DNA of 64,000 bases from Nitrospira japonica (GCA_020725385.1 DYFC01000006.1:3737-67736); one strand, 5' to 3'. Counted from the stretch's first letter, positions 6,230 through 22,513 are shown. Numbers and translations: made by a program. The notes: generated by a model not told the origin, from the sequence alone.

Positions 6230-8044
6230 TCAAGCAACTTTTTTAAGAGGTTTTAAAGGAACGATAATTGTTGCTTTTGTACCGAATCCCGGTTTTGAAT
6301 CAAATTTAAAATGACCGCCAAGATATTTAATTCGCTCATGTATCGTAAATAATCCGAAACCTTCTTTCTTATTTGTATAAGGATTTATTTTAACTGTATC
6401 AACACCAATTCCATCATCCTCAACCTGTATCTGCATATTTTTATAGTCACGATTTATAGAAATTTTCACATTTTTCGCTTTTGCATGTCGGGCGACATTT
6501 ATCATCAATTCCCTTACAGCCTGATAAAGAAGTATTCTTGTTTCATCATTTATTGGTTTTGGTCTTAAATCATCCTCAAACCTGAAAATAAGTCCGAGTT
6601 GTTTCTGGAATTGATACCCCAACCATTTTAGTGCTGGCTCAAGACCTTCTTCATATAATATAGGCGTGCCCAGCTGAAACGTAAGTGATTTTGTATATTC
6701 CATTGTCTGGTTTATTAGGTCAATCAATTCATCGGTGAGTTCTTTTGATTTGTCATATGATTTAGATTCCCTTAGTGTTTCAAGTTTATTTTTACAATAA
6801 AAGAGAGTTTGTCCTATATAATCATGCAATTCAGAAGCAATACATCTTCTCTGCCTTTCTTCTACAAGGGATAATTCAGATGACAATGTTCTTAATTGTT
6901 CCTGATAAGATATCAATTCTTTTTCAGCTATTTTTCTGGCAGTAATATCAGTAAATACACCGAAACTCCCGTTAAAATTTTTATTTTCATCAAAAATAGG
7001 TCTTGGAGAAACCAGTGTGTAAAGCTTTTTTTCGTTTTTCCCTGTTATTGTAATTTCATAAGGAGAGGAATCACCCTGCATTCTTGAAGACCAGTGTTTT
7101 TGAAATATTTTCTGATTTTCTTTGTCAAAAAGTACCATAATCTGATAGCCGATAAGTTCTTCTTTAGAATAACCTGTCATCTTACAGAATTGTTCATTTA
7201 CAAAGGTGATTATGCTATTTTTATCTATCATTGCAAGACCTTCGCTCATTGTTTCAATAAGGGTGCGATGATGTTCCTCACTTTGCCGAAGTGCGTCTTC
7301 AGCACGTTTTCTATCCAATATTTCCTGCTGAAGCTTCTCGTTTGCGAGAGTAAGTTCCATTGTACGTTCTTTTACCCGTTGTTCCAATTCATCATGTGCT
7401 AATTGCAAAGCATTCTCTACTTTTTTTCTCTTTGTAATTTCTTTATAGATATTTTCAATAGTTTCGTTGGTAACACGTTTAAGAGATTCAAGTAATTCAA
7501 CTTTTGAAGTCCCTTTTACCCTTGCATTGAGATTACCTGTCGAAACTTTGTGAAGCACATCAAAATGTTCGGCAAGACCTATAGCTATTTCATGGGATTG
7601 ATCAACTATTTCTCCTATTTCTGAAGCTGTAAGATTTATGAGTTTCTTCAGTTTTCTTATAAGCTCAATATTTGAGTACTCGGATATTCTTACAGTCGGA
7701 TCCCCTGATGAGATTTTCTTTAATGCTTCAAAAACTTCAGACATACTCAAGGCGAGTTCCATACTCATCGATTCAAGTTCCTTATCCCGCTCAACAATCA
7801 TTCTTGAGAACTCTTTAAATTGCTTGTTTACAACTTTAATAGTTGCTTTCATAGCATTTATATCTTTATTTGCTTTTAACATCTCGCAATCAAGACACAT
7901 TTCTATTTTCTCAAGAAATTTACCTTGAATTGAATCCCTGCATTGTGTTCCCGAAAACAGCCAGCATTTATAGTCATCCGATTCATAGGCAGGGCATTGA
8001 ATTTTATTGCACTTAAATACTTCCCAGCATTTCAAGGGTTTCAT
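6230..8044 (-). CDS. Cytoplasmic sensor histidine kinase: Cys-rich two-CW N-domain, coiled-coil/HAMP-like, PAS, HisKA_3, HATPase
   Basis: N-terminus KCWEVFKCNKIQCPAYESDDYKCWLFSGTQCRD...CLDCE; no TM segment. PAS region (MIDKNSIITFVNEQFCKMTGYSKEELIG). H-box SELHDYIGQTL (NarX/DegS type). N/G boxes NVARHAKA, DDGIGV, GFGL. Confidence 0.85.
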   Translation of the reverse strand: MKPLKCWEVFKCNKIQCPAYESDDYKCWLFSGTQCRDSIQGKFLEKIEMCLDCEMLKANKDINAMKATIKVVNKQFKEFSRMIVERDKELESMSMELALSMSEVFEALKKISSGDPTVRISEYSNIELIRKLKKLINLTASEIGEIVDQSHEIAIGLAEHFDVLHKVSTGNLNARVKGTSKVELLESLKRVTNETIENIYKEITKRKKVENALQLAHDELEQRVKERTMELTLANEKLQQEILDRKRAEDALRQSEEHHRTLIETMSEGLAMIDKNSIITFVNEQFCKMTGYSKEELIGYQIMVLFDKENQKIFQKHWSSRMQGDSSPYEITITGKNEKKLYTLVSPRPIFDENKNFNGSFGVFTDITARKIAEKELISYQEQLRTLSSELSLVEERQRRCIASELHDYIGQTLFYCKNKLETLRESKSYDKSKELTDELIDLINQTMEYTKSLTFQLGTPILYEEGLEPALKWLGYQFQKQLGLIFRFEDDLRPKPINDETRILLYQAVRELMINVARHAKAKNVKISINRDYKNMQIQVEDDGIGVDTVKINPYTNKKEGFGLFTIHERIKYLGGHFKFDSKPGFGTKATIIVPLKPLKKVA

Positions 8045-8154: not shown

Positions 8155-9498
8155 TTAAGGTATCTGTATATTAAATCCTTTTATTTTGCGATGAAGGTTG
8201 CTTCGCTCTACTTCCAGAACTTCGGCGGTCTTTGATATATTCCAGTTGTTTTCTTGAAGCTTTCTAATAATAAAATCCCTCTCAAAAGCTTCTTTTGCTT
8301 CTCTTAAAGTATTAAAAGAAAAACAATCCGAATGTGTGTTTTGATTTAAGAAAATATTTTTAGGTGTAATAATTTCAGAAGGAGTCATGATTACAAGTCT
8401 CTCGATTACATTTCTTAGTTCTCTAATATTTCCCGGCCAGTCATATACAGAAAGCAATCTCAATCCATCATCTGTAATTTTTTTTGGTTTTTGTCCGTAT
8501 TCATCTGCGAAATATTTAAGGAAATGTTCAACAAGTTCAGGGATATCTTCCTTCCTTTCCCTTAACGGAGGAATAATAATAGGTATTACATTTAATCTGA
8601 ACAAAAGATCTTCTCTAAAATTTCCTTTTTTTACTTCTTCAAAAAGATCCTTGTTTGTAGCAGATATAATTCTAACATCGACCTTTATATTTTTACTTCC
8701 ACCAACTCTCTGGAATTCCTGAGTTTCGATAATACGCAGTACTTTGGACTGGGTTGATAATGACATATCACCAACTTCATCAAGAAATAGTGTTCCTTCA
8801 TCGGCAAGCTCAAATTTCCCTTTTTTACGTTCAAATGCTCCGGTAAAAGAACCTTTCTCATGTCCGAATAGCTCGCTTTCTATAAGTTCCTGAGGAATTG
8901 CTGCACAATTCATTTCGATAAAGGGCTTATCGACTCTTGGGCTATTTTCATGCAGAAGGTGTGCAACAAGCTCCTTACCAGAACCGCTTTCCCCGAGTAT
9001 TAATACTCTACTGTTACTTATAGCTGCCATATTAATTTGTTCTTTTAAGTTCTGGATTTTTGTTGAACTACCAACAAGTTTCCATTTTCTTGTGATGTCT
9101 TCTTTTAAAGCTCTGTTTTCAAGCTCCAATGTCCTTTTTTCAAGAGCCAATTTTGTTACCAGAAGAACTCTTTCGAGTGAAAGTGGTTTTTCGAGAAAAT
9201 CATAGGCGCCAGAGCGTGTAGCTTTTACAGCAAGTTCAATATTTGCATGACCCGATATCATTACAACCGGCATAGTTGGATTTATGGATTTTATTTCTTT
9301 CATGGTTTCTATGCCATCGATTCCGGATAGCCATACATCAAGAAAAACAATATCAGGCGAATTTTCCTTCATTATTTTAAGGGCTTCTTCTCCTGATGAT
9401 GCTGTAATTACATCATAACCTTCATCTTTGAATATATCCGAGAGTGTTTCCCTTATTCCTTCTTCATCATCTACTATTAGTACGAGTTTATCTATCAT
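8155..9498 (-). CDS. Sigma-54-dependent response regulator (NtrC/NtrX-like)
   Basis: Receiver (LIVDDE...DVWLSGIDG), AAA+ Walker A GESGSGKE, GSFTGA sigma-54 contact loop, C-terminal Fis-type HTH. Confidence 0.9.
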   Translation of the reverse strand: MIDKLVLIVDDEEGIRETLSDIFKDEGYDVITASSGEEALKIMKENSPDIVFLDVWLSGIDGIETMKEIKSINPTMPVVMISGHANIELAVKATRSGAYDFLEKPLSLERVLLVTKLALEKRTLELENRALKEDITRKWKLVGSSTKIQNLKEQINMAAISNSRVLILGESGSGKELVAHLLHENSPRVDKPFIEMNCAAIPQELIESELFGHEKGSFTGAFERKKGKFELADEGTLFLDEVGDMSLSTQSKVLRIIETQEFQRVGGSKNIKVDVRIISATNKDLFEEVKKGNFREDLLFRLNVIPIIIPPLRERKEDIPELVEHFLKYFADEYGQKPKKITDDGLRLLSVYDWPGNIRELRNVIERLVIMTPSEIITPKNIFLNQNTHSDCFSFNTLREAKEAFERDFIIRKLQENNWNISKTAEVLEVERSNLHRKIKGFNIQIP

Positions 9499-11517
9499 TT
9501 ATATCTCCTTTATTGGCATCTCTATTTTAAATACCGAACCTTTCGGTATATTCTCTCTTACTGTTATTTCCCCGCCATGTTCTTTAACAATCCTGTTTGC
9601 TATTGCAAGACCAAGACCTGTCCCGCCCTTTTTTGTTGAAAAATTAGGTTGAAAAAGTCTATCCATATCCGTTTTTTTGATTCCAGTGCCTGTATCTGCA
9701 ATTTCAACAGAAAGACTATTCAACTCTGGATTAAAATTTATGACAACATCAATAACACCGGTATCGGACATTGCCTGTATTGCGTTATCAAATATATTTA
9801 TAAGAACTCTCTTGAATTGTTCCGTGTCGAGTTCAACAGAGGGAATGTCATTGGGTATTGATACGTTTATCTTAATATTCTTATAACCATAGTACAGATG
9901 GATTACTTCATCTATAATATTATAAAGATTTGCAGGTTTCTTTTTTATTTCCGGCATTTTCCCGTATCTTGAAAACTCGTCAACAAGCTTTTTTAAACTC
10001 TCAACTTCTCTTATGATTGTTCTAGTAGATTGATAGAAAGTATTTTCAAAGTCCTTGTCTTTATTATCCCATTTTTTCATCATGCGTTCTGTCGAAAGCC
10101 TTATAGGTGTTAAAGGATTCTTGATTTCGTGGGCAATTTTTCTTGCAGCATCCTGCCATGTTAGAGCTTTCTGGGCTTCTATAGCTTCTGTAATATCATC
10201 AAAAACAACAAGCAACCCGATATATTTTTCGTTATCTTTCAGACTCGTTATAAAAATATTAAGGGATAATTTCTTATCACCAATCAATGTGCTTATCTGT
10301 TTTTTCACAGGTCTAAATTGCCTGCCCTCTATGCTTTTAACTATCTCTCTTATTTCCTGAGAATCGATTTGTGATAACAATTCATTGTAATTTTTATTTA
10401 CAACTTCATCCTGTCTTATCCCGAGAATCATACATGCTGCACCATTTATCATTGAAATATTCCCGTTAATATCAAGCATAATAACCCCTGAATTTATATT
10501 ATCAAGAATGTTTTTAAGATACAGATAAGCTGACTGAATGGATTCTTTGCCTGCTTTTAAGTTTTTCACCATTTCATTAAAAGAATTCACGAGCAGACCC
10601 ATTTCGTCTTCTTTCTCTAAATCAATATGCACATCAAGATTTCCAGAAGAAACCTGCTGATTTGCAAGAACGAGCATCTGTATTGGATCGGTTATATTTC
10701 TTGAGATCCTTAAAGCAACCCAAAGGGCAAAGAATACAACTATTGTAGTGATAAACCCAAGTATCAGGAGATAGTTTGCTTTAACAGGAACTCTCAATGA
10801 TTCTAAAGTTAAGTAATTTTCATATGCATCATTTATTTTATCTGCATACTTTGTAATTGAAGAAGGCATATAAGTTTCAACAATCGCTACTCTTATGACC
10901 CTGCCATTTTTATATTCAGGCACAGCTGCTCTTATTATATCTCTGGTATCATTTGAAATAACCTCTGCTCCTTCTTTACCTTCAAATGCAGATTTAATTG
11001 TTTCGGTTGCTTCTTCAGGAAGTTGATAAATATATTTTAGCGTATAACTGCCCTGAACTTCTTTTTCATTATGAATCCGGCTCCTAGCAAAAGCAAGAGC
11101 CTTCTGTTTTTCATTTTCATAGATTGTTTTTGCGATTTCAACCGAGCTTTCAATAGGTGTCTTAATCTGGGGAATAAACCAGCGGTCTATATAATTTGTG
11201 ATTAATCCGCTTGCTATAAAAAACAAAAGGGCAGAAGGAATTAAAGTGATGATGACAAATGTCGCAACCAGTCTCGTTTTGAATTTATAACCCGGAACTT
11301 GATGTTTTTTCTCAAAAAAAAGTTTTACAAGACTTTTGGCTATGAAAAAAATTAAGACAAGTAATGCAAGAAAAGTAAGGTTAAAAAGAAGCAGAAGAAT
11401 AATCTGTGTTGGAAAAGGTATTGTTTCATGCCTTATATAATGGATCTCGAGGGCAAAAGATGTGATTATAAAAATCGCTGAGAAAAAAAGAAAAATTTTA
11501 AATCTTAATTCTTTCAT
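9499..11517 (-). CDS. NtrY-like sensor histidine kinase (TM, HAMP, PAS, HisKA, HATPase)
   Basis: Multi-TM N-terminus, HAMP, PAS, H-box AHEIKNPLTPI, HATPase G-boxes DTGTGI and GTGLGL. Abuts its regulator with no gap. Confidence 0.85.
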   Translation of the reverse strand: MKELRFKIFLFFSAIFIITSFALEIHYIRHETIPFPTQIILLLLFNLTFLALLVLIFFIAKSLVKLFFEKKHQVPGYKFKTRLVATFVIITLIPSALLFFIASGLITNYIDRWFIPQIKTPIESSVEIAKTIYENEKQKALAFARSRIHNEKEVQGSYTLKYIYQLPEEATETIKSAFEGKEGAEVISNDTRDIIRAAVPEYKNGRVIRVAIVETYMPSSITKYADKINDAYENYLTLESLRVPVKANYLLILGFITTIVVFFALWVALRISRNITDPIQMLVLANQQVSSGNLDVHIDLEKEDEMGLLVNSFNEMVKNLKAGKESIQSAYLYLKNILDNINSGVIMLDINGNISMINGAACMILGIRQDEVVNKNYNELLSQIDSQEIREIVKSIEGRQFRPVKKQISTLIGDKKLSLNIFITSLKDNEKYIGLLVVFDDITEAIEAQKALTWQDAARKIAHEIKNPLTPIRLSTERMMKKWDNKDKDFENTFYQSTRTIIREVESLKKLVDEFSRYGKMPEIKKKPANLYNIIDEVIHLYYGYKNIKINVSIPNDIPSVELDTEQFKRVLINIFDNAIQAMSDTGVIDVVINFNPELNSLSVEIADTGTGIKKTDMDRLFQPNFSTKKGGTGLGLAIANRIVKEHGGEITVRENIPKGSVFKIEMPIKEI

Positions 11518-12122
11518 TTGAGTAAGCCGGTTGTGAAATATTGAGAATCTTTTTTAATTTTAAATGCATTTTCGGATACAAAAAACATGAAATAACCCAA
11601 TACAGGAGGGAGTTTTCTAATTTTCGATTCAGCAGTTACTCTAACAAAATATACGCTATTTTCGAGCTCCTTAATATTTGCAAGTTTAATATTTTCAAAA
11701 CTTAACGCCCATTGAAGCATGGACTCAAATGATTTAAATCTTTTTCTGACCTGAGATGCACCATCATTTGAAGTTGCTATAAATTCAGTTTTGACCGGAT
11801 CAACTTTAATCGTTCTGGTAAATGATTTGCCTGTGATAAATTCATCAGGCCACATTTCCCATACCCTGAAGAGATCTATATGAAATATTATTTCCTTCTT
11901 TATTCCATTTTTTATTTCTTCGATGAATTTATCATCAAGGGTAACAGAAGTTGTGACATATATATCGTTTTCAAATATTCTTACCTCGGGACCAGAAATT
12001 TCAGCAGCTATTAATCTTGATTGAAACGCAAAAAAAACAAGTGCGAGCGCAACAATAATTGAAACTATATCTTTTTTTAAGTTACCTATAAAAATATTTT
12101 TCATGATTATTTCTTTGAACAA
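11514..12122 (-). CDS. DUF4390-like protein (commonly precedes ntrY)
   Basis: Signal/TM segment followed by a beta-rich domain. The 4-nt overlap with the ntrY-like gene matches the usual DUF4390-ntrYX layout. The real start is possibly the ATG at 12104. Confidence 0.55.
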   Translation of the reverse strand: MFKEIIMKNIFIGNLKKDIVSIIVALALVFFAFQSRLIAAEISGPEVRIFENDIYVTTSVTLDDKFIEEIKNGIKKEIIFHIDLFRVWEMWPDEFITGKSFTRTIKVDPVKTEFIATSNDGASQVRKRFKSFESMLQWALSFENIKLANIKELENSVYFVRVTAESKIRKLPPVLGYFMFFVSENAFKIKKDSQYFTTGLLK

Positions 12123-13068: not shown

Positions 13069-13230
13069 ATGAGTAAATATAAGTGTTCGGTTTGTGGTTA
13101 TATTTATAATCCTGAAGAAGGAGACCCTGATTCAGGAATTCCTCCCGGAACACCCTTTGAAAAACTTCCGGATGATTGGAAATGTCCGGTATGCGGGGCT
13201 GAAAAATCAGCTTTTGAAAAGATCGATTAA
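13069..13230 (+). CDS. Rubredoxin (53 aa; below the ORF-track size cut-off)
   Basis: Hand translation gives [53 protein letters not shown]. It has two CxxCG knuckles and the conserved rubredoxin core; SD AGGAG lies 7 nt upstream. Confidence 0.9.
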
Positions 13231-13252: not shown

Positions 13253-13260
13253 TGTATAAT
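13253..13260 (+). promoter_or_regulatory. Candidate extended -10 promoter element (TGTATAAT) upstream of kaiC
   Basis: TGnTATAAT lies 24 nt upstream of the kaiC ATG. The -35 is weak (TTTTAT). Confidence 0.35.
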
Positions 13261-13283
13261 TTAGCCAAAGATAGGGGGTTCTT

Positions 13284-14699
13284 ATGTCAATAAATAACAA
13301 AAGGACATTGAAAAAGACGCCGACCTATATTACAGGACTCGATGAAATTCTTAATGGAGGATTACCATACGGACGTACATCACTTGTATTTGGGACTCCT
13401 GGGAATGGAAAAACTGTAATGGGGGTGGAATACCTTTATAGAGGAGCAATAAATGGAGAACCGGGTATTTTTCTTGGGTTTGAAGAAACAGTGAAAACCC
13501 TATGCGAAAATGCACTTACCATGGGTTTTAATCTTTCTTCTTTGATGAAAAAAAATCAACTTTTTCTTATGGACGGAAAGATTGAGCCTGATATAGTCAT
13601 GAGTGGCAAGTTTTCACTTAAGCCTATGCTTTCAATTATTTCAGGAAAAGCAAAGGAAATAGAAGCAAAGAGACTCGTTCTGGATGCGCTGGATGTGGTT
13701 TTCGGGTTATTAGAAAATCCTGTTCAGGTACGTTCAGAATTATATCATTTAAATCTATGGCTTATGAAGTTAGGACTTACAACACTTATAACCTTAAAAC
13801 CAAGAGAAGGTTATCCGGGAACTTTGTTTCAGGATTATTTTTACTCAATATCAGATTGTGTTATTCATCTTGATGTAAGGCAATTAGATCAGGTCTCTAC
13901 AAGACGCTGTCGTATAGTTAAATATCGTGGTTCTGATTTTGGAAGAAATGAATATCCTTTTATTATTACTGATAAAGGTATCCGTTTAATTCCAATTACA
14001 AAATTTGATCTAAGACATAAGCCTTTTGGAGAGAGAATTTCATCTGGCATTGCAAGACTCGATGATATGCTTGGAGGAGGCTACCAGAGAGCATCATGTA
14101 TTCTATTGGCAGGTGAACCGGGAACAGGAAAAACAATTCTTGCAACAACATTTATTGCCCAGATGTGTAAACAAAATGAAAAGGCTTTGTATTTGAGTTT
14201 TGAAGAATCACCTGAAGCCCTTACTCATAATACAGCAAGCGTAGGATTAAATCTTGAACAATTTACAACATCGGGAAATCTTTTAATTGTAGGTGCAATG
14301 CCTGAAGCAACAGGTGTTGAAGAACATTTAATGAGACTTTTTGATAAAGTTGAAAGCTTTAATCCACAGCATGTAATTATAGATGCTATTTCTGCCTGTG
14401 AACGAATAGCGGGCAAAGAAGCTGCTTTTGATTATCTCATGCGTATTTTGAATTTCCTAAAAGAAAAAGGTATAACAGTAGTTCTTACAAACCAAACATC
14501 GGGTAAAAAATCACAGTTAGAAATATCAGGCAATGGAATATCATCCATGGTGGATACAGTAGTTTTTATAACATATGTACATGGTGAGAAAGAAATTAAC
14601 AGAACTATTCAGATTCTAAAAGCAAGGGGTTCAAGTCATTCAAATAAAATAAAAGGATTCAGAATAAATGACAATGGTATAGAGATTTATGATATTTGA
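13284..14699 (+). CDS. kaiC: KaiC-family double-domain ATPase/autokinase
   Basis: Two RecA-like halves, each with a Walker A (GTPGNGKT; GEPGTGKT) and an EE catalytic pair (GFEET; SFEES). GISSMVDTVVFI aligns with the S431/T432 phosphosite loop of cyanobacterial KaiC. Confidence 0.85.
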   Translation: MSINNKRTLKKTPTYITGLDEILNGGLPYGRTSLVFGTPGNGKTVMGVEYLYRGAINGEPGIFLGFEETVKTLCENALTMGFNLSSLMKKNQLFLMDGKIEPDIVMSGKFSLKPMLSIISGKAKEIEAKRLVLDALDVVFGLLENPVQVRSELYHLNLWLMKLGLTTLITLKPREGYPGTLFQDYFYSISDCVIHLDVRQLDQVSTRRCRIVKYRGSDFGRNEYPFIITDKGIRLIPITKFDLRHKPFGERISSGIARLDDMLGGGYQRASCILLAGEPGTGKTILATTFIAQMCKQNEKALYLSFEESPEALTHNTASVGLNLEQFTTSGNLLIVGAMPEATGVEEHLMRLFDKVESFNPQHVIIDAISACERIAGKEAAFDYLMRILNFLKEKGITVVLTNQTSGKKSQLEISGNGISSMVDTVVFITYVHGEKEINRTIQILKARGSSHSNKIKGFRINDNGIEIYDI

Positions 14700-14735
14700 A
14701 ATTAAGGTCTTAGAGGAATTTTAGGGAGGGATAAG

Positions 14736-15089
14736 TTGGCTGGTAATATAAAAGGTAAGAAGAAAGAAAAATCTATTGATAGACCGGACAAAAGAAAAAA
14801 GCTTTTATATTATAATTTAAGGTTATTTATTGCCGGTGATGAACCAAATTCAAGAATAGCAAAAGAGACTTTGGAAAATTTATGTAAAAAGTATCTTTAT
14901 GAAAATTATAAACTGGAAATAATTGATGTGGTTAAGGATTTTAAATCAGCAATTGAGGAAAAGATCTTTTTCGCTCCGACTTTAATTATTGAGACTTCTG
15001 AATTTAAATCAAGAATTGTTGGTTCTTTGATTGATAAGAAAAAATTACTGGATATTCTTGGTTTGTCTGAAACAAACAGTGATAAATGA
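14736..15089 (+). CDS. kaiB: KaiB (thioredoxin-like fold) with a Lys-rich N-terminal extension
   Basis: LRLFIAGDEPNSRIAKETLENLCKK...YKLEIIDVVKD...APTLI. TTG start 6 nt after a GGGAGGG SD. Confidence 0.8.
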   Translation: MAGNIKGKKKEKSIDRPDKRKKLLYYNLRLFIAGDEPNSRIAKETLENLCKKYLYENYKLEIIDVVKDFKSAIEEKIFFAPTLIIETSEFKSRIVGSLIDKKKLLDILGLSETNSDK

Positions 15090-16915
15090 ACAAAAAAAAG
15101 CTTACTTATAAAGAACTTCAGGAAAGACTTACTCAGGCTGAAGAAGCTATTGAAGCATTGCGTTCAGGCAAAGTTGATTTAATATTAGGTGAGAATTGTC
15201 CACTTGTAATTAAGGCAAGGACACTGGAGCAAGAGGCGCAAAAGCTCAATGCTGCAATTGAACAAACATCGGATTGGGTAGTTATAACCAATAAGGATGG
15301 AACTATTGAATATGTAAATAAGGCAGTAGAAATAATATCAGAATATAGAAGAGAGGAATTAATTGGGAAAAATCCCAGAATTTTTAAGTCAGGAAAGCAT
15401 GATAGGGAATTTTATAAGAATTTATGGGAAACAATATGTTCTGGAAATGTATTTAATGCAATTTTGATAAACAGGAAAAAGACAGGAGACTTGTTCGAAC
15501 TTCATTATACAATAACACCATTAAAAAATAAAGACGGTCAAATTCATCATTTTATAGCTACAGCAAAAGACATAACAGAACAGAAGCTCCTTAAGGAACA
15601 GATGGAATATTCCGCAAAATATGATACTCTAACCGGTCTATATAACAGAAAATATTTTACAGAAGAGATTAACCATCTGGCAGATAATGCTCAGAAACAG
15701 GGGATTAAATTTGCTGTAGTCTTAGTTGATATTGATAAATTTACAGCTCTGAATGATACTTTTGGTTTTGAAACCGGAGACGAAATATTAAAAAGAGCAG
15801 GCAAGAGAATTTTCAATAGTATCTGTACGGATTGCAAGGTTTCACGTTTTGAGGCTGACAAATATGGAGTGCTACTTTCTGATACAGGCAATCCCGAGGA
15901 TATAATTTTAGTGCTCGAAAAAATAAGAAGCAATTTCAATAGATCATTTAAAATCGGTACTGAAGATATATTTCTTACATTATGCATGGGGATTTCAATA
16001 TTTCCTGAAAATGGCAATAGTGCTGAAGCTCTAATAAAAAATGCTGAAATTGCACTTTCAAAAGCAAGATCTATAAGGTTGAATAACTATCAGTTTTTTG
16101 AAGAAGAAATCAATATTAAAACCTCGGAATTTGTACACATGCAGAGACATTTATTCCATGCGCTCAAAAAAAATGAATTTACCATGCATTATCAACCTTA
16201 TTTTGATTGTCAAACCCGTGAATTGAAGGGAGTAGAGGCATTGATACGGTGGAATAATCCAAAATTTGGTCTTGTAACTCCCGGAATGTTTATCCCATTT
16301 CTTGAAGAAACAGGAATGATATTAGAAGTTGGCAAGTGGATTATAAGAACAGTATGCAAACAAATCAGGGAGTGGATAAATAAAGGTTATGATAAACAGA
16401 TGGTGCCTGTGTATATCAATCTATCATTGGCTCAATTCATGCAAAAGGATTTAACAGATTTTATTGAAAGAACTATTTCTGAAACAAATATAAAGTCAGA
16501 ATACTTAGGTTTTGAGATTACCGAAAGCTTTTTTATGCATGATATTGAGCATACCCAGAAAATATTAGGAAACCTAAGACAAAAAGGGATTTCTGTAAAT
16601 ATAGATGACTTTGGAACAGGATATTCTTCACTTAGCAGTTTGTGGAAGTTGCCTTTTAATAATTTAAAAATTGACAGCTCTTTTATTAAAGAATTAACAA
16701 CCAATCCTGACAATACAGCTATAGTAATAACAATAATCTCACTTGCCCATAATCTTAATCTTAAGACAATTGCTGAAGGTGTTGAGAACGAAATTCAGTG
16801 GCAGACGCTTCGAATACTTAAATGCGATATGGTGCAGGGCTATTATTTTAGCAGACCTTTGCCAGCAGATGAAGTTGAAAGATTCTTTGAAAGTAAAATA
16901 ATATTGTTTACATAA
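15086..16915 (+). CDS. PAS / degenerate GGDEF / EAL protein (predicted c-di-GMP phosphodiesterase)
   Basis: ATGA overlap with kaiB. N-terminal coiled coil plus PAS. The GGDEF fold is retained (LTGLYNRKYF, VLVDIDKFTALND) but the signature reads RFEADKYG. The EAL residues are intact (EALIRW, N in NLS, EITES, DDFGTGYSS, KIDSSF, EGVENE, QGYYF). Confidence 0.85.
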   Translation: MNKKKLTYKELQERLTQAEEAIEALRSGKVDLILGENCPLVIKARTLEQEAQKLNAAIEQTSDWVVITNKDGTIEYVNKAVEIISEYRREELIGKNPRIFKSGKHDREFYKNLWETICSGNVFNAILINRKKTGDLFELHYTITPLKNKDGQIHHFIATAKDITEQKLLKEQMEYSAKYDTLTGLYNRKYFTEEINHLADNAQKQGIKFAVVLVDIDKFTALNDTFGFETGDEILKRAGKRIFNSICTDCKVSRFEADKYGVLLSDTGNPEDIILVLEKIRSNFNRSFKIGTEDIFLTLCMGISIFPENGNSAEALIKNAEIALSKARSIRLNNYQFFEEEINIKTSEFVHMQRHLFHALKKNEFTMHYQPYFDCQTRELKGVEALIRWNNPKFGLVTPGMFIPFLEETGMILEVGKWIIRTVCKQIREWINKGYDKQMVPVYINLSLAQFMQKDLTDFIERTISETNIKSEYLGFEITESFFMHDIEHTQKILGNLRQKGISVNIDDFGTGYSSLSSLWKLPFNNLKIDSSFIKELTTNPDNTAIVITIISLAHNLNLKTIAEGVENEIQWQTLRILKCDMVQGYYFSRPLPADEVERFFESKIILFT

Positions 16916-16932: not shown

Positions 16933-17601
16933 ATGGAAGATTTAAAGCATTCCGAGACATGGAGAGTATTTAGAATTCAATCAGAGCTTGTTGAAGGATT
17001 CGAGACTTTAAATGATCTTGGACCAGCGGTAGCAATTTTTGGGAGCTCACGCATGAAGCCCGGCTCGCATTATTATAAAAAAGCTGTTGAACTTGGAAGA
17101 CTTCTTTCAAATTCAGGGTTCTCGGTTATTACAGGCGGCGGTCCCGGAATTATGGAAGGAGCTAATAAAGGGGCTAAAAAAGGCAAAGGAAAATCTGTAG
17201 GACTTAATATAGAAATTCCAGCAGAGCAGCATCCCAATCCTTATCAAGATATAAATCTTTCATTCAGATATTTTTTTATCAGAAAACTAATGTTTGTCAA
17301 ATACTCAATGGCATTCATTATTTTTCCCGGAGGCTTTGGCACAATGGATGAATTATTTGAAGCATTGACTTTGTCTCAAACAAAAAAGATAGGGGTATTC
17401 CCTATAATTCTATTTGGTAGTGAATACTGGGCAGGATTAATTGAATGGTTCAGATCAACACTTATACCACACAATACAATTGAGGCAAAGGATCTCGGAT
17501 TATTCAGTGTTGTTGATGAAGTTCATGAAGTTTGCGGTATTTTACAGGAATACAAGAAAGCATATAATCAGGAAATACCTGAATGCAAACAACCAAGATA
17601 A
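16933..17601 (+). CDS. LOG-family (TIGR00730-type) nucleotide phosphoribohydrolase
   Basis: GGGPGIMEG and PGGFGTMDELFE motifs. Confidence 0.85.
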   Translation: MEDLKHSETWRVFRIQSELVEGFETLNDLGPAVAIFGSSRMKPGSHYYKKAVELGRLLSNSGFSVITGGGPGIMEGANKGAKKGKGKSVGLNIEIPAEQHPNPYQDINLSFRYFFIRKLMFVKYSMAFIIFPGGFGTMDELFEALTLSQTKKIGVFPIILFGSEYWAGLIEWFRSTLIPHNTIEAKDLGLFSVVDEVHEVCGILQEYKKAYNQEIPECKQPR

Positions 17602-20391: not shown

Positions 20392-20455
20392 ATTGTACAA
20401 CATAGAAAGGTATTTTAAGAGTAAAATAAGGTATATAAGATTAGCTGGAGGGAAT

Positions 20456-20671
20456 ATGGGTACTGTTACGAAAGAAAAAAAGGTTGCTGATATGACTGTG
20501 GGAGAACTTCAGGAAATTATTAGAAAAACAATTAGTGAATTTCTGGATCCTGATTATGGACTTGAATTAAGACCCGAAATAGAAAAGGAACTCGAGGAGT
20601 CCTTAAAACAAAAAGAACGTGCTGAAGGAATTCCACTTGAAAAAGTAATAAAAGAATTAGGGCTTAAATAG
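20456..20671 (+). CDS. Type II antitoxin (small acidic protein preceding relE/parE)
   Basis: 71 aa from the ATG at 20456, after a GGAGGG SD. Its stop overlaps the toxin GTG (ATAGTG). Confidence 0.6.
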   Translation: MGTVTKEKKVADMTVGELQEIIRKTISEFLDPDYGLELRPEIEKELEESLKQKERAEGIPLEKVIKELGLK

Positions 20672-20928
20672 TGTTTCGGGTTATCATACTTCCTAAAGCC
20701 TTTAATGATCTTTCAAAGCTTGATAAATCTATATCTAAGCGTATTATAGAAAAAATTATATGGCTATCTGAGAATGCTGAAAACATTACTCATTTTTCTC
20801 TTAAAGGTAGATTTAATGAACTGTTTAAGTTACGAATAGGTGATTGGCGGGTTATTTATGATTTAGATTACGAACAAAGGATAATGACAGTACATAAAGT
20901 CGGACACAGAAGCGAGATTTATAAATAA
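20671..20928 (+). CDS. RelE/ParE-family type II toxin
   Basis: 85 aa. LRIGDWRVIY...V..VGHRSEIY is the classic RelE/StbE C-terminal pattern. Confidence 0.8.
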   Translation: MFRVIILPKAFNDLSKLDKSISKRIIEKIIWLSENAENITHFSLKGRFNELFKLRIGDWRVIYDLDYEQRIMTVHKVGHRSEIYK

Positions 20929-20983: not shown

Positions 20984-22513
20984 ATGAGCATAGTTAAAGA
21001 AATTCCTTATATAAGCCCTGAAGATTTGCCAAAAGTGCCATTTGTAATAAACGGCATTTCATCAAGATTTATCCGTGAAAATAAGATTGTACCTCTTGAA
21101 ATGAAAAATAATGTCTTAAAAGTCGTAATGGCAAATCCAGATGATTCATCTGTAATTGATGCGCTAAGGGTAGCAACATCTTCTGATATTGTAGTTTATA
21201 CTTCGGACAAGAATCTTCTTGAGGAATATATTTCCCGTTTCTATGAGCAGGAATCACAAAACATAAACAGAATTATTGAAGATCTTGGAGACAGGGGGAT
21301 AGAATTTCTTAAAGACGAAGAGGAAGATATTGGCCATCTAAAAGACCTTGCATCAGAAGCTCCGATAATCCGTCTTGTTAATATGCTCATATCAAGAGCA
21401 GTTGAAAGCAGGGCGAGTGATATTCATATAGAGCCTTTTGAAGATGAACTAAAAGTTCGTTATCGAATAGACGGAGTCCTACATGATATAGAATCAACTC
21501 CTAAGAGATTGCAGGCTGCTATTGTTTCAAGAATTAAAATTATGGCAAAACTTAATATCGCAGAAAGAAGGCTGCCGCAGGATGGACGCATAAGACTTAA
21601 AATAGGCGATAAAGAGCTTGATTTAAGAGTTTCAACAATTCCTGTGTTATATGGTGAAAGTGTTGTTATGAGACTTCTGCATAAAGAAGGCATTGTTATA
21701 GACCTTAACCTTCTTGGATTTCCCGGGCATACACTTAATTTATTTAACCAATTAATTCAAAAACCAAATGGAATAATTCTCGTAACAGGACCAACAGGAA
21801 GTGGAAAAACCACAACGCTTTATGGCGCTCTTGATAAAATTAATTCACCTGATAAAAAGATTATAACGGTTGAAGACCCTGTTGAGTATCAATTGAAAGG
21901 TGTAAATCAAATTCAGGTAAAACCTCAAATAGGTTTGAATTTCGCAAATACTTTAAGGCATATTGTCAGGCAGGACCCTGATATTATTATGATAGGTGAA
22001 ATCAGAGACCTTGAGACAGCAGAAATTGCTATTCAATCAGCCTTGACAGGTCATTTAGTATTTTCAACCTTACATACAAATGACGCTCCAAGCGCTATTA
22101 CAAGATTACTCGATATGGGGGTTGAGAATTTTTTACTATCATCTACCATAAGGGGAATACTCGCACAAAGACTTGTCAGGGTAATATGCCCTTCATGTAA
22201 AGAACCCGACCAAACTGTGCCTGACAGAGAGCAGTTGAGTCTTTTCGGGATTGATACTTCTATTACTATATATCATGGCAAAGGTTGCGAGAAATGTGCA
22301 TTTACAGGATATTACGGCAGATCCGGGATATTTGAATTGCTTGTTGTTGATGATGATATTCGGAAGCTGATCTTAAAAAATGCTGATTCAAATCAAATAA
22401 GAGATGCGGCAAGAAAGAATGGAATGAAAACTCTTCTTGAAGATGGCGGAGATAAAATAAAAGCAGGAGTTACAACAATCAGTGAAGTCCTCAGAGTTAC
22501 CCAGGAAGCCTAA
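20984..22513 (+). CDS. GspE/PilB-family secretion ATPase (orphan)
   Basis: T2SSE_N domain, Walker A GPTGSGKTTT, Asp box VEDPVE, Walker B IIMIGEIRD, His box FSTLHTN, tetra-Cys CPSC...CEKC. Confidence 0.85.
   Translation: MSIVKEIPYISPEDLPKVPFVINGISSRFIRENKIVPLEMKNNVLKVVMANPDDSSVIDALRVATSSDIVVYTSDKNLLEEYISRFYEQESQNINRIIEDLGDRGIEFLKDEEEDIGHLKDLASEAPIIRLVNMLISRAVESRASDIHIEPFEDELKVRYRIDGVLHDIESTPKRLQAAIVSRIKIMAKLNIAERRLPQDGRIRLKIGDKELDLRVSTIPVLYGESVVMRLLHKEGIVIDLNLLGFPGHTLNLFNQLIQKPNGIILVTGPTGSGKTTTLYGALDKINSPDKKIITVEDPVEYQLKGVNQIQVKPQIGLNFANTLRHIVRQDPDIIMIGEIRDLETAEIAIQSALTGHLVFSTLHTNDAPSAITRLLDMGVENFLLSSTIRGILAQRLVRVICPSCKEPDQTVPDREQLSLFGIDTSITIYHGKGCEKCAFTGYYGRSGIFELLVVDDDIRKLILKNADSNQIRDAARKNGMKTLLEDGGDKIKAGVTTISEVLRVTQEA

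Follow-up and report, generated by a model that had tools for sequence, protein, structure and literature searches.

KaiB and KaiC pairs that lack KaiA are widespread outside cyanobacteria, and both the targets of such pairs and the way in which they control them are largely unknown. What one of them might control is the question raised by a stretch of 64,000 nucleotides (nt) of Nitrospira japonica DNA (GCA_020725385.1, DYFC01000006.1:3737-67736; G+C about 34%; hereafter the window, with positions counted from its first letter), in which co-oriented kaiC and kaiB genes are followed by a gene for a 609-amino-acid (609-aa) protein with PAS, degenerate GGDEF and EAL domains, predicted to act on the second messenger cyclic diguanylate (c-di-GMP). 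Comparison of this cassette with relatives in other genomes gave good support to the idea that kaiBC and the PAS/degenerate-GGDEF/EAL gene are functionally linked. On balance, we lean towards the view that the three genes encode one signalling unit, in which KaiB or KaiBC would dock on the N-terminal region and PAS domain of the 609-aa protein and so gate its EAL domain.

Linkage of the 609-aa gene to kaiBC

An earlier note on this DNA, made from the sequence alone, had assigned KaiC, KaiB, PAS, GGDEF and EAL domains to the three products, and profile hidden Markov model (HMM) searches confirmed all five. The start codon of the 609-aa open reading frame (ORF) overlaps the stop codon of kaiB as ATGA, just as the note had read it, and no Shine-Dalgarno (SD) sequence of its own was seen in front of this ORF. 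A promoter and terminator scan, whose counts stayed at the level of shuffled sequence, predicted no terminator between kaiC, kaiB and the 609-aa gene.

The kaiB-EAL adjacency on which the earlier note had built its proposal turned out to be conserved in relatives. Full-length orthologues with 84%, 71% and 65% identity all lie directly after kaiC-kaiB, and the cassette is kept in three flanking contexts, one with synteny like that of the window (L001), one with enolase and Zip genes (L004) and one with SelB and HepT genes (L005/L006). Because the order of the cassette is kept while its flanks change, the linkage is not a matter of chance. Nitrospirae/Nitrospirota metagenome-assembled genomes are the source both of the identical protein and of those most similar to it (82-84% identity). 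The next-closest homologues, two lone 584-aa proteins (48-51% identity; L009, L010) and a version fused to a REC domain, are not beside kai genes. Alignment of the two groups showed that the Kai-linked proteins carry about 48 additional N-terminal residues (LTYKELQERLTQAEEAIEALRSGKVDLILGENCPLVIKAR; hereafter the N-terminal module, Nmod), have RFEADK[YF] in every orthologue and are devoid of RxxD, whereas the non-Kai paralogues are without the first ~48 residues and keep both RxxD (as RKGD) and G[GS]DEF-like motifs. In this alignment, loss of the predicted cyclase features is a trait of the Kai-linked clade, in which the EAL residues stay invariant.

Nmod is present in all kaiB-adjacent orthologues and in none of the non-Kai paralogues. 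It also opens three other proteins encoded after relatives of the window KaiB, namely a hybrid histidine kinase (L011), a GAF-PAS kinase (L012, Sumerlaeota) and a PAS kinase (L014). How often kaiB is followed by such a gene, a count that the earlier note had left to a neighbourhood survey, was determined in two scans, both seeded with narrow alignments and therefore biased towards relatives of the window's proteins. The first, seeded with Nmod, drew on a single genome for each GTDB species and found 10 loci; kaiC-kaiB lies directly upstream in all 8 in which the module was confirmed and sufficient DNA precedes it (Nitrospirae, Deltaproteobacteria, Desulfobacteraceae, Tepidiaquacella, Hyphomicrobiales, Sumerlaeota, Thermodesulfobacteriota and Solirubrobacteraceae), the other two being a cut locus and a weak match without kai genes (L025, Leptospirales). 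The second, a metagenome scan seeded with the KaiB subfamily, gave 80 loci representing 57 KaiB clusters at 90% identity. By a position-based test, an Nmod gene lies directly 3′ of kaiB in 74/74 of the loci whose sequence continues for more than 107 nt beyond kaiB, and in 61 of these 74 it overlaps kaiB as NTGA; the 4-nt start/stop overlap is a feature of the whole family.

When the Nmod HMM was run on the ORFs of the 105 fetched loci, it matched only genes after kaiB, the one cut locus and the one weak L025 match. Of 1.84 billion cluster representatives searched exhaustively with HMMER, 480 matched Nmod (E<=0.001), and in almost all of the 150 best the match starts at residue 1; a 9-sequence Nmod profile had retrieved only 3 short proteins from a word-indexed protein database, which is an effect of the index and not a sign of rarity. 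The module is likewise found in the protein after kaiB in the Pararhizobium kaiC-kaiB-kaiB operon, and the HWE kinase encoded right after kaiB on plasmid pRSKD131A of Rhodobacter sphaeroides KD131, reportedly the strain of the KaiBC hourglass study, starts with VTPAEIDELRRRLHEAEETLKAIRQGDVDALVV and matches the Nmod HMM at E 3e-12. In every Nmod protein the module is immediately followed by one or more sensory PAS domains. The window's 609-aa protein fits the family pattern, in which the product of the gene next to kaiB opens with a helix and an [AS][IL]RxGxxD motif and continues into PAS.

These data bear on the simplest alternative, that the genes are mere co-transcribed neighbours whose proteins are not coupled and whose overlap reflects genome compaction. 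Overlaps of 4 nt are indeed common in compact bacterial operons, but the adjacency holds in 74/74 and 8/8 evaluable loci, in different phyla and next to different flanking genes, and among the loci scanned Nmod is confined to kaiB-adjacent proteins, the weak L025 match apart. We consider this alternative very improbable.

Predicted activities of the three proteins

The solved proteins closest to the 609-aa protein are MorA (4rnh; E 3e-93), DosP (9bgv) and RbdA (5xgb), all of them sensor-controlled GGDEF-EAL proteins; the NCBIfam equivalog cut-offs for DibA and DosP were not reached. The EAL catalytic set is complete (E384, R388, N445, E477/E480, D507/D508 in DDFGTGYSS, K528, E564/E567 and Q584), and alignment showed these residues to be invariant among 12 homologues. 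In place of GGDEF stands RFEADKY (residues 254-260; signature EADKY, 256-260), and the I-site RxxD is missing five residues N-terminal to EADKY, in a segment that reads TDCKVSRF with CTDC at the I-site position. Alignment with the paralogues and MorA showed that the degenerate GGDEF nevertheless retains D217, N223, D232 and R254, the metal- or base-contact residues of active cyclases. Both statements of the earlier note, that every EAL catalytic residue is kept and that the GGDEF signature is EADKY, are thus supported by motif positions and alignment, and the motifs fit a protein that would hydrolyse c-di-GMP and would not make it. The degenerate GGDEF could possibly serve as a GTP sensor by analogy with Caulobacter PdeA, in which a degenerate GGDEF is reportedly a GTP-binding allosteric domain. 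The PAS domain, with the motif GKNPRIF at residues 94-100, is LOV-like in pattern, but NPRIF replaces the flavin-binding NCRFL of LOV domains. An AlphaFold2 (AF2) model of the whole protein (predicted local distance difference test, pLDDT, 83) placed a helix at residues 8-26, a poorly defined segment at 28-45, a helix at 45-60 running into PAS (64-162) and a linker helix at 164-178, followed by GGDEF and EAL.

The KaiB product matches PF07689 (E 1.3e-12, 47.7 bits versus a gathering cut-off of 27) and stays below both NCBIfam equivalogs (NF006798, 46.9 versus 110; TIGR02654, 46.2 versus 145.3). The strong SD sequence and TTG start described previously were borne out, the SD being AGGGAGGG, and the TTG start is further supported because the orthologues keep the Lys-rich N-terminal extension of KaiB. 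Residues 1-25 (14736-14810) are strongly basic and carry a net charge of about +7 in L026 and L027, which are close relatives of the window; the extension is less basic in L028/L029 (+3) and is not general across the wider KaiB subfamily. The AF2 model of KaiB, built from a subfamily alignment of 12 sequences only, had a beta-alpha-beta-alpha-beta-beta-alpha order with a core pLDDT of 77-89. Its top Foldseek match was the fold-switch-stabilised KaiB of a KaiC CI complex (5jwr_B; template modelling score 0.91, root-mean-square deviation 1.3 A), followed by KaiC-bound R. sphaeroides KaiB (8fwj_M), Legionella KaiB (4kun) and thioredoxins, and ground-state KaiB tetramer entries were absent from the top 50. 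The position of Thermosynechococcus elongatus Gly89, at which G89A favours the fold-switched state, is occupied by Ile in the window KaiB and by Ala in most of the subfamily as well as in Legionella KaiB. The model suggests that KaiB may rest in the thioredoxin-like, KaiC-binding fold.

The earlier description of KaiC as a double-domain protein with both Walker A motifs, both EE pairs and a Ser-Ser pair agrees with the database matches and motif positions. PF06745 (KaiC/ATPase) matches the product twice (E 6e-103), and the protein clears NF006799 ('circadian clock protein KaiC'; 492 bits versus a cut-off of 408) while remaining below the cyanobacterial equivalog TIGR02655 (315 bits versus 546). 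Motif reading located Walker A at residues 37-44 (GTPGNGKT) and 277-284 (GEPGTGKT) and the EE pairs at 67-68 and 307-308. Ser420-Ser421, within GISSMVDT, fall at the CII position of S431/T432 and align opposite the IST of 8zn5 (cyanobacterial-type) and the LSS of R. sphaeroides KaiC; the ISS motif is shared throughout the family of KaiC relatives, and by alignment the two serines occupy the position of the phosphorylatable pair. The best matches in the PDB were 8zn5 (E 8e-96) and R. sphaeroides KaiC (8db3/8dba). In three relatives kaiC is called as two genes, for the CI and CII halves (L004 4238-5651, L005 4183-5639, L007 150-1606); relative to the intact, near-identical L006 the splits are 1-nt frameshifts, and we set them aside as likely assembly errors or pseudogenes.

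The end of the window KaiC matches residue ~481 of Synechococcus elongatus KaiC, which leaves no A-loop or KaiA-binding tail, and the tail after K.RG..H measures 19 aa versus 89-154 aa in many relatives, so that there is no C-terminal extension either. As the earlier note had stated, no KaiA and no SasA/CikA-type kinase was found among the annotated genes flanking the cassette, although KaiA was not searched for across the window with a model of its own. Judged by these annotated genes, with the same proviso for KaiA, the cassette has neither KaiA nor the substituting C-terminal extension of KaiC that would mark a self-sustained oscillator of the KaiABC type.

Such a cassette might be a stress or energy switch and not a timer, with KaiC reporting ATP/ADP or redox state, as has been suggested for Legionella KaiBC, and passing it through KaiB to c-di-GMP hydrolysis with neither an intrinsic delay nor an hourglass. 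Its host is a non-phototrophic Nitrospirota lineage; the residue at the G89A fold-switch position is not Gly, and a Legionella KaiB with Ala there adopts the switched fold and is linked to a stress response; and KaiC is without the A-loop and C-terminal extension used by the cyanobacterial and R. sphaeroides proteins. However, KaiC keeps both EE pairs and the Ser-Ser of the R. sphaeroides hourglass KaiC, so that a slow phosphocycle is possible. We regard a pure switch as improbable; it differs from the proposed signalling unit in dynamics only, the wiring being the same.

Outputs of the cassette and direction of signalling

Among the 34 classifiable KaiB clusters, the protein encoded after kaiB is a histidine kinase in 26, a PAS/GAF sensor without further domains in 4, a GGDEF-EAL protein in 3 (the window's close relatives, L026-L029) and an HD-GYP protein in 1 (L104). 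The 150 best Nmod representatives include at least 82 histidine kinases, one GGDEF-EAL cluster (the window's family) and one HD-GYP protein (P0211); in a local search, the others of these 150 comprised 46 fragments shorter than 300 aa, one protein with a REC match only and 19 longer proteins with no output match, and a Pfam scan of 8 of those 19 gave 7 PAS/GAF-only proteins and 1 HWE-type kinase. Histidine kinases are therefore the usual output and c-di-GMP outputs are rare. Both HD-GYP proteins have an intact domain, L104 (838-4518) as Nmod-PAS-GAFx5-HD-GYP with HD...HHE...GYP and P0211 as Nmod-PAS-HD-GYP. A Solirubrobacteraceae locus (L024, 4214-6884) has the order kaiC-kaiB-kaiB-Nmod-PAS-GGDEF-EAL, with GGDEF and RxxD intact and an EAL of the ELL type. 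From these outputs it follows that c-di-GMP enzymes have been joined to the cassette in at least three different forms. One of them, the phosphodiesterase-only type whose GGDEF is degenerate, was observed solely in the family of the window protein, the named sources of which are Nitrospirae. HD-GYP, as found in L104 and P0211, represents a second, unrelated class of c-di-GMP phosphodiesterase on the same cassette. Tandem kaiB genes occur in L024 and in the Pararhizobium locus (L107, 6162-8519), and in L024 position 89 is Gly in the first copy and Ala in the second.

The survey of outputs also bears on the direction of signalling. The PAS-GGDEF-EAL protein could be an input to KaiBC, or a modulator of it, that binds KaiB through its N terminus and tunes KaiB availability or KaiC cycling according to a PAS signal, its c-di-GMP activity being regulated separately. 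Precedents for this exist, since a PAS-ABC fragment of the S. elongatus PAS-GGDEF-EAL protein KidA alone gives a period phenotype for which GGDEF and EAL are dispensable (PMC9478674), and a role as redox input has been suggested for the histidine kinase encoded with kaiBC in R. sphaeroides. The sensory PAS domain that directly follows Nmod in every Nmod protein, and the existence of PAS/GAF-only Nmod proteins with no enzymatic output, also agree with an input role. On the other hand, 30 of the 34 classifiable clusters have an enzymatic output (histidine kinase, EAL or HD-GYP), which is more easily explained if the enzyme activity is the thing controlled, and the Kai-linked clade lost its cyclase and I-site motifs while keeping all EAL residues, which points to selection on a hydrolytic output. 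We judge an input role to be unlikely.

If the three genes do form one signalling unit with the enzyme as its output, it might work as follows. KaiC would act as an autokinase and ATPase whose state is set by phosphorylation of Ser420/Ser421 and by nucleotide supply at CI, with no KaiA partner and no A-loop. KaiB, probably thioredoxin-like at rest, would join or leave KaiC according to the state of KaiC and, alone or on the KaiC CI ring, would dock on Nmod and PAS; docking would shift the enzyme dimer so that EAL is switched on or off. GGDEF would be unable to make c-di-GMP and would serve at most as a GTP-sensing or structural relay, and PAS would add a second input whose ligand we leave unassigned. 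The net output would be c-di-GMP hydrolysis dependent on the Kai state and probably also on the PAS ligand, and KaiB and the enzyme would be produced in concert through translational coupling. The same plug-in design, usually with a histidine kinase output, recurs in numerous phyla, and the R. sphaeroides KaiBC hourglass operon is one instance of it. In this scheme we infer the physical binding, the direction and sign of control, the KaiC phosphocycle and any timekeeping. A wider proposal, which we advance more tentatively, is that Nmod is a dedicated adaptor that docks KaiB or KaiB-KaiC and wires one Kai timer or energy switch to exchangeable histidine kinase, EAL and HD-GYP outputs, in this case to give Kai-phase-dependent hydrolysis of c-di-GMP.

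Several points weigh against a unit of this kind. Which way the signal runs does not follow from conserved gene order by itself. The AF2 confidence of Nmod is low (pLDDT 37-63), the weak Nmod-like match L025 is without kai genes, and a related helix with an 'AIRSGxVDAxVV' motif occurs in P0135, a 99-aa fragment without genomic context; motifs of the P0135 type presumably also lie inside other PAS proteins, and the motif class may extend to proteins outside Kai systems and to positions other than the N terminus. Pairing of charges between the Lys-rich KaiB extension and an acidic Nmod helix was considered and rejected as a general docking principle, as it fits the Nitrospirota clade (+7) and only 60-68% of loci overall. 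Finally, the GGDEF and EAL domains of KidA are dispensable for its clock phenotype, and KidA acted on the oscillator and is not a proven output (PMC9478674). As to P0135 itself, its motif reads 'AIRSGKVDAVVVAG..QVFTLEGAD', and this longer variant is also present in kaiB-linked proteins of Pararhizobium and Solirubrobacteraceae.

The cassette offers a presumed output enzyme with a simple in vitro readout, hydrolysis of c-di-GMP, for which a three-protein system would suffice, and Nmod, common to at least 480 protein clusters, is a specific and mutable candidate for the Kai-effector interface. Should the proposed unit exist, clock or hourglass proteins would be tied to second-messenger control of biofilm and motility decisions. 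If Nmod is moreover a dedicated adaptor, a non-phototrophic anaerobe would place a second messenger under the control of time of day or energy history. Nmod, present in the R. sphaeroides kaiBC operon too, would then supply the output link that non-cyanobacterial Kai systems in general have been missing.

Neighbouring genes and known systems

Features of the cassette and its surroundings are collected in Table 1. A search of the 64-kb window revealed neither a second kai gene nor any further GGDEF, EAL or HD-GYP gene, and an Rfam search of it returned two tRNAs only and no c-di-GMP riboswitch. The TATAAT hexamer in front of kaiC has a poor -35 region and was for that reason not listed by the consensus promoter scan. 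The LOG-family gene downstream, which weakly resembles the nucleotide nucleosidase PpnN, overlaps the phosphodiesterase gene in L001 and is absent downstream in L004 and L005; it is possibly co-transcribed with the cassette. As parts of the system, the LOG-family and rubredoxin genes were ruled out by their absence from the L004/L005 cassettes (rubredoxin is present in L001). Some 4 kb 3′ of the phosphodiesterase gene lies a type II/IV secretion ATPase gene with an MshEN N-terminal domain, a family that includes high-affinity c-di-GMP receptors; no RLGxx-type motif was seen by eye in this protein. Between fdhD and the ATPase gene stands a ParE-family toxin gene, preceded by a gene for a 92-aa partner without Pfam matches; since the syntenic L001 lacks both at this site, the pair looks like a recent insertion. 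Just upstream of the cassette and divergent from it is an operon for a DUF4390 protein, a HAMP-PAS histidine kinase and a sigma-54 NtrC-type regulator, in which we found no Nmod and no evident kai link.

Table 1. Coordinates of the cassette, its domains and neighbouring genes (window positions unless an accession is given)
Feature	Position	Strand	Evidence or remark
DUF4390 / HAMP-PAS histidine kinase / sigma-54 NtrC-type regulator operon	8155-12122	-	
Rubredoxin gene	13069..13230	+	PF00301 E 1e-25; 53 nt upstream of kaiC
TATAAT hexamer	13255..13260	+	23 nt 5′ of kaiC start; possible -10 of a cassette promoter
kaiC	13284..14699	+	471-aa double-domain KaiC
SD sequence of kaiB	14723..14730	+	sequence; 5 nt before TTG
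kaiB	14736..15089	+	117 aa, TTG start, 36 nt after kaiC; divergent KaiB domain
ATGA, start of 609-aa ORF overlapping kaiB TGA	15086..15089	+	sequence
609-aa predicted phosphodiesterase gene	15086..16915	+	PAS, GGDEF, EAL (Pfam)
Nmod, residues 1-48	15086..15229	+	helix, then RSGKVDLILGE..PLVIK; candidate Kai-docking element
PAS domain, residues 54-165	15245..15580	+	PAS_9 E 1.7e-17; PAS E 1e-16
Degenerate GGDEF, residues 177-329	15614..16072	+	Pfam GGDEF E 9e-35
EAL domain, residues 355-591	16148..16858	+	PF00563 E 1.9e-72
LOG/TIGR00730-family (SLOG) gene	16933..17601	+	Pfam, NCBIfam; 17 nt after phosphodiesterase gene
ParE-family toxin gene and upstream partner	20393-20928		PF05016 (toxin)
Type II/IV secretion ATPase gene with MshEN domain	20984-22513		Pfam
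L106 HWE histidine kinase gene, Cereibacter (Rhodobacter) sphaeroides KD131	NC_011962.1 124088-125524 (locus 6467-7903)		Nmod HMM

The arrangement of a c-di-GMP gene after kaiC-kaiB is not new, and the cassette is a rare output variant of a widespread KaiC-KaiB-sensor operon that had already been noticed. De Luca et al. 2011 (PLoS One, Fig. 4/S6) noted GGDEF/EAL genes after kaiC-kaiB clusters; in the parts of that paper available to us this is a gene-context observation in other taxa, with no description of a shared N-terminal module, a start/stop overlap, GGDEF degeneracy or biochemistry. The earlier note had proposed that the KaiBC state may gate c-di-GMP turnover directly, an output logic that to its knowledge had not been characterised. 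The functional link at the level of the genes stands, on order, overlap and the clade-specific Nmod; the claim that the output logic was unknown does not, given the 2011 observation, the kaiC-B-PAS/histidine kinase operon described below and KidA. A literature search of incomplete coverage returned no paper on the shared N-terminal module or on a biochemically shown Kai-gated phosphodiesterase or c-di-GMP turnover. According to a 2026 study, the S. elongatus rhythm responds to c-di-GMP levels, and not via direct binding to Kai proteins.

KidA (Synpcc7942_1859) binds fold-switched KaiB through its PAS domains, and Kim et al. 2022, who reported this, pointed to PAS genes beside kai homologues in other bacteria (PMC9478674). 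Like the 609-aa protein, KidA is a PAS-GGDEF-EAL protein linked to KaiB, for which its authors proposed a bridge between clock and c-di-GMP (PMC9478674). KidA has four PAS domains, keeps the GGDEF and EAL active residues, belongs to a KaiABC oscillator and was found by pull-down (PMC9478674), whereas the protein described here combines Nmod with a single PAS domain, its GGDEF is degenerate and its gene overlaps kaiB. DosP of Escherichia coli, RbdA and MorA of Pseudomonas aeruginosa and PdeA of Caulobacter share with it the PAS-GGDEF-EAL layout, in which an N-terminal sensor controls EAL; these proteins respond directly to O2, GTP or further small signals, and none of them is known to be coupled to Kai proteins.

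The kaiC-kaiB-PAS/histidine kinase operon of Rhodopseudomonas palustris and R. sphaeroides, described by Ma et al. 2016 (PMC4794148), resembles the window's cassette in gene order and in having no KaiA. In R. sphaeroides the likeness extends to the Ser-Ser phosphosite of KaiC and to the gene after kaiB, which starts with Nmod followed by PAS. The systems differ in output, an HWE/HisKA kinase there and a predicted EAL phosphodiesterase here; in KaiC, which measures 471 aa with no C-terminal extension here and 568 aa in the R. sphaeroides chain 8dba; and in KaiB, which here, unlike in the R. sphaeroides/R. palustris operon, is divergent and bears a Lys-rich N-terminal extension.

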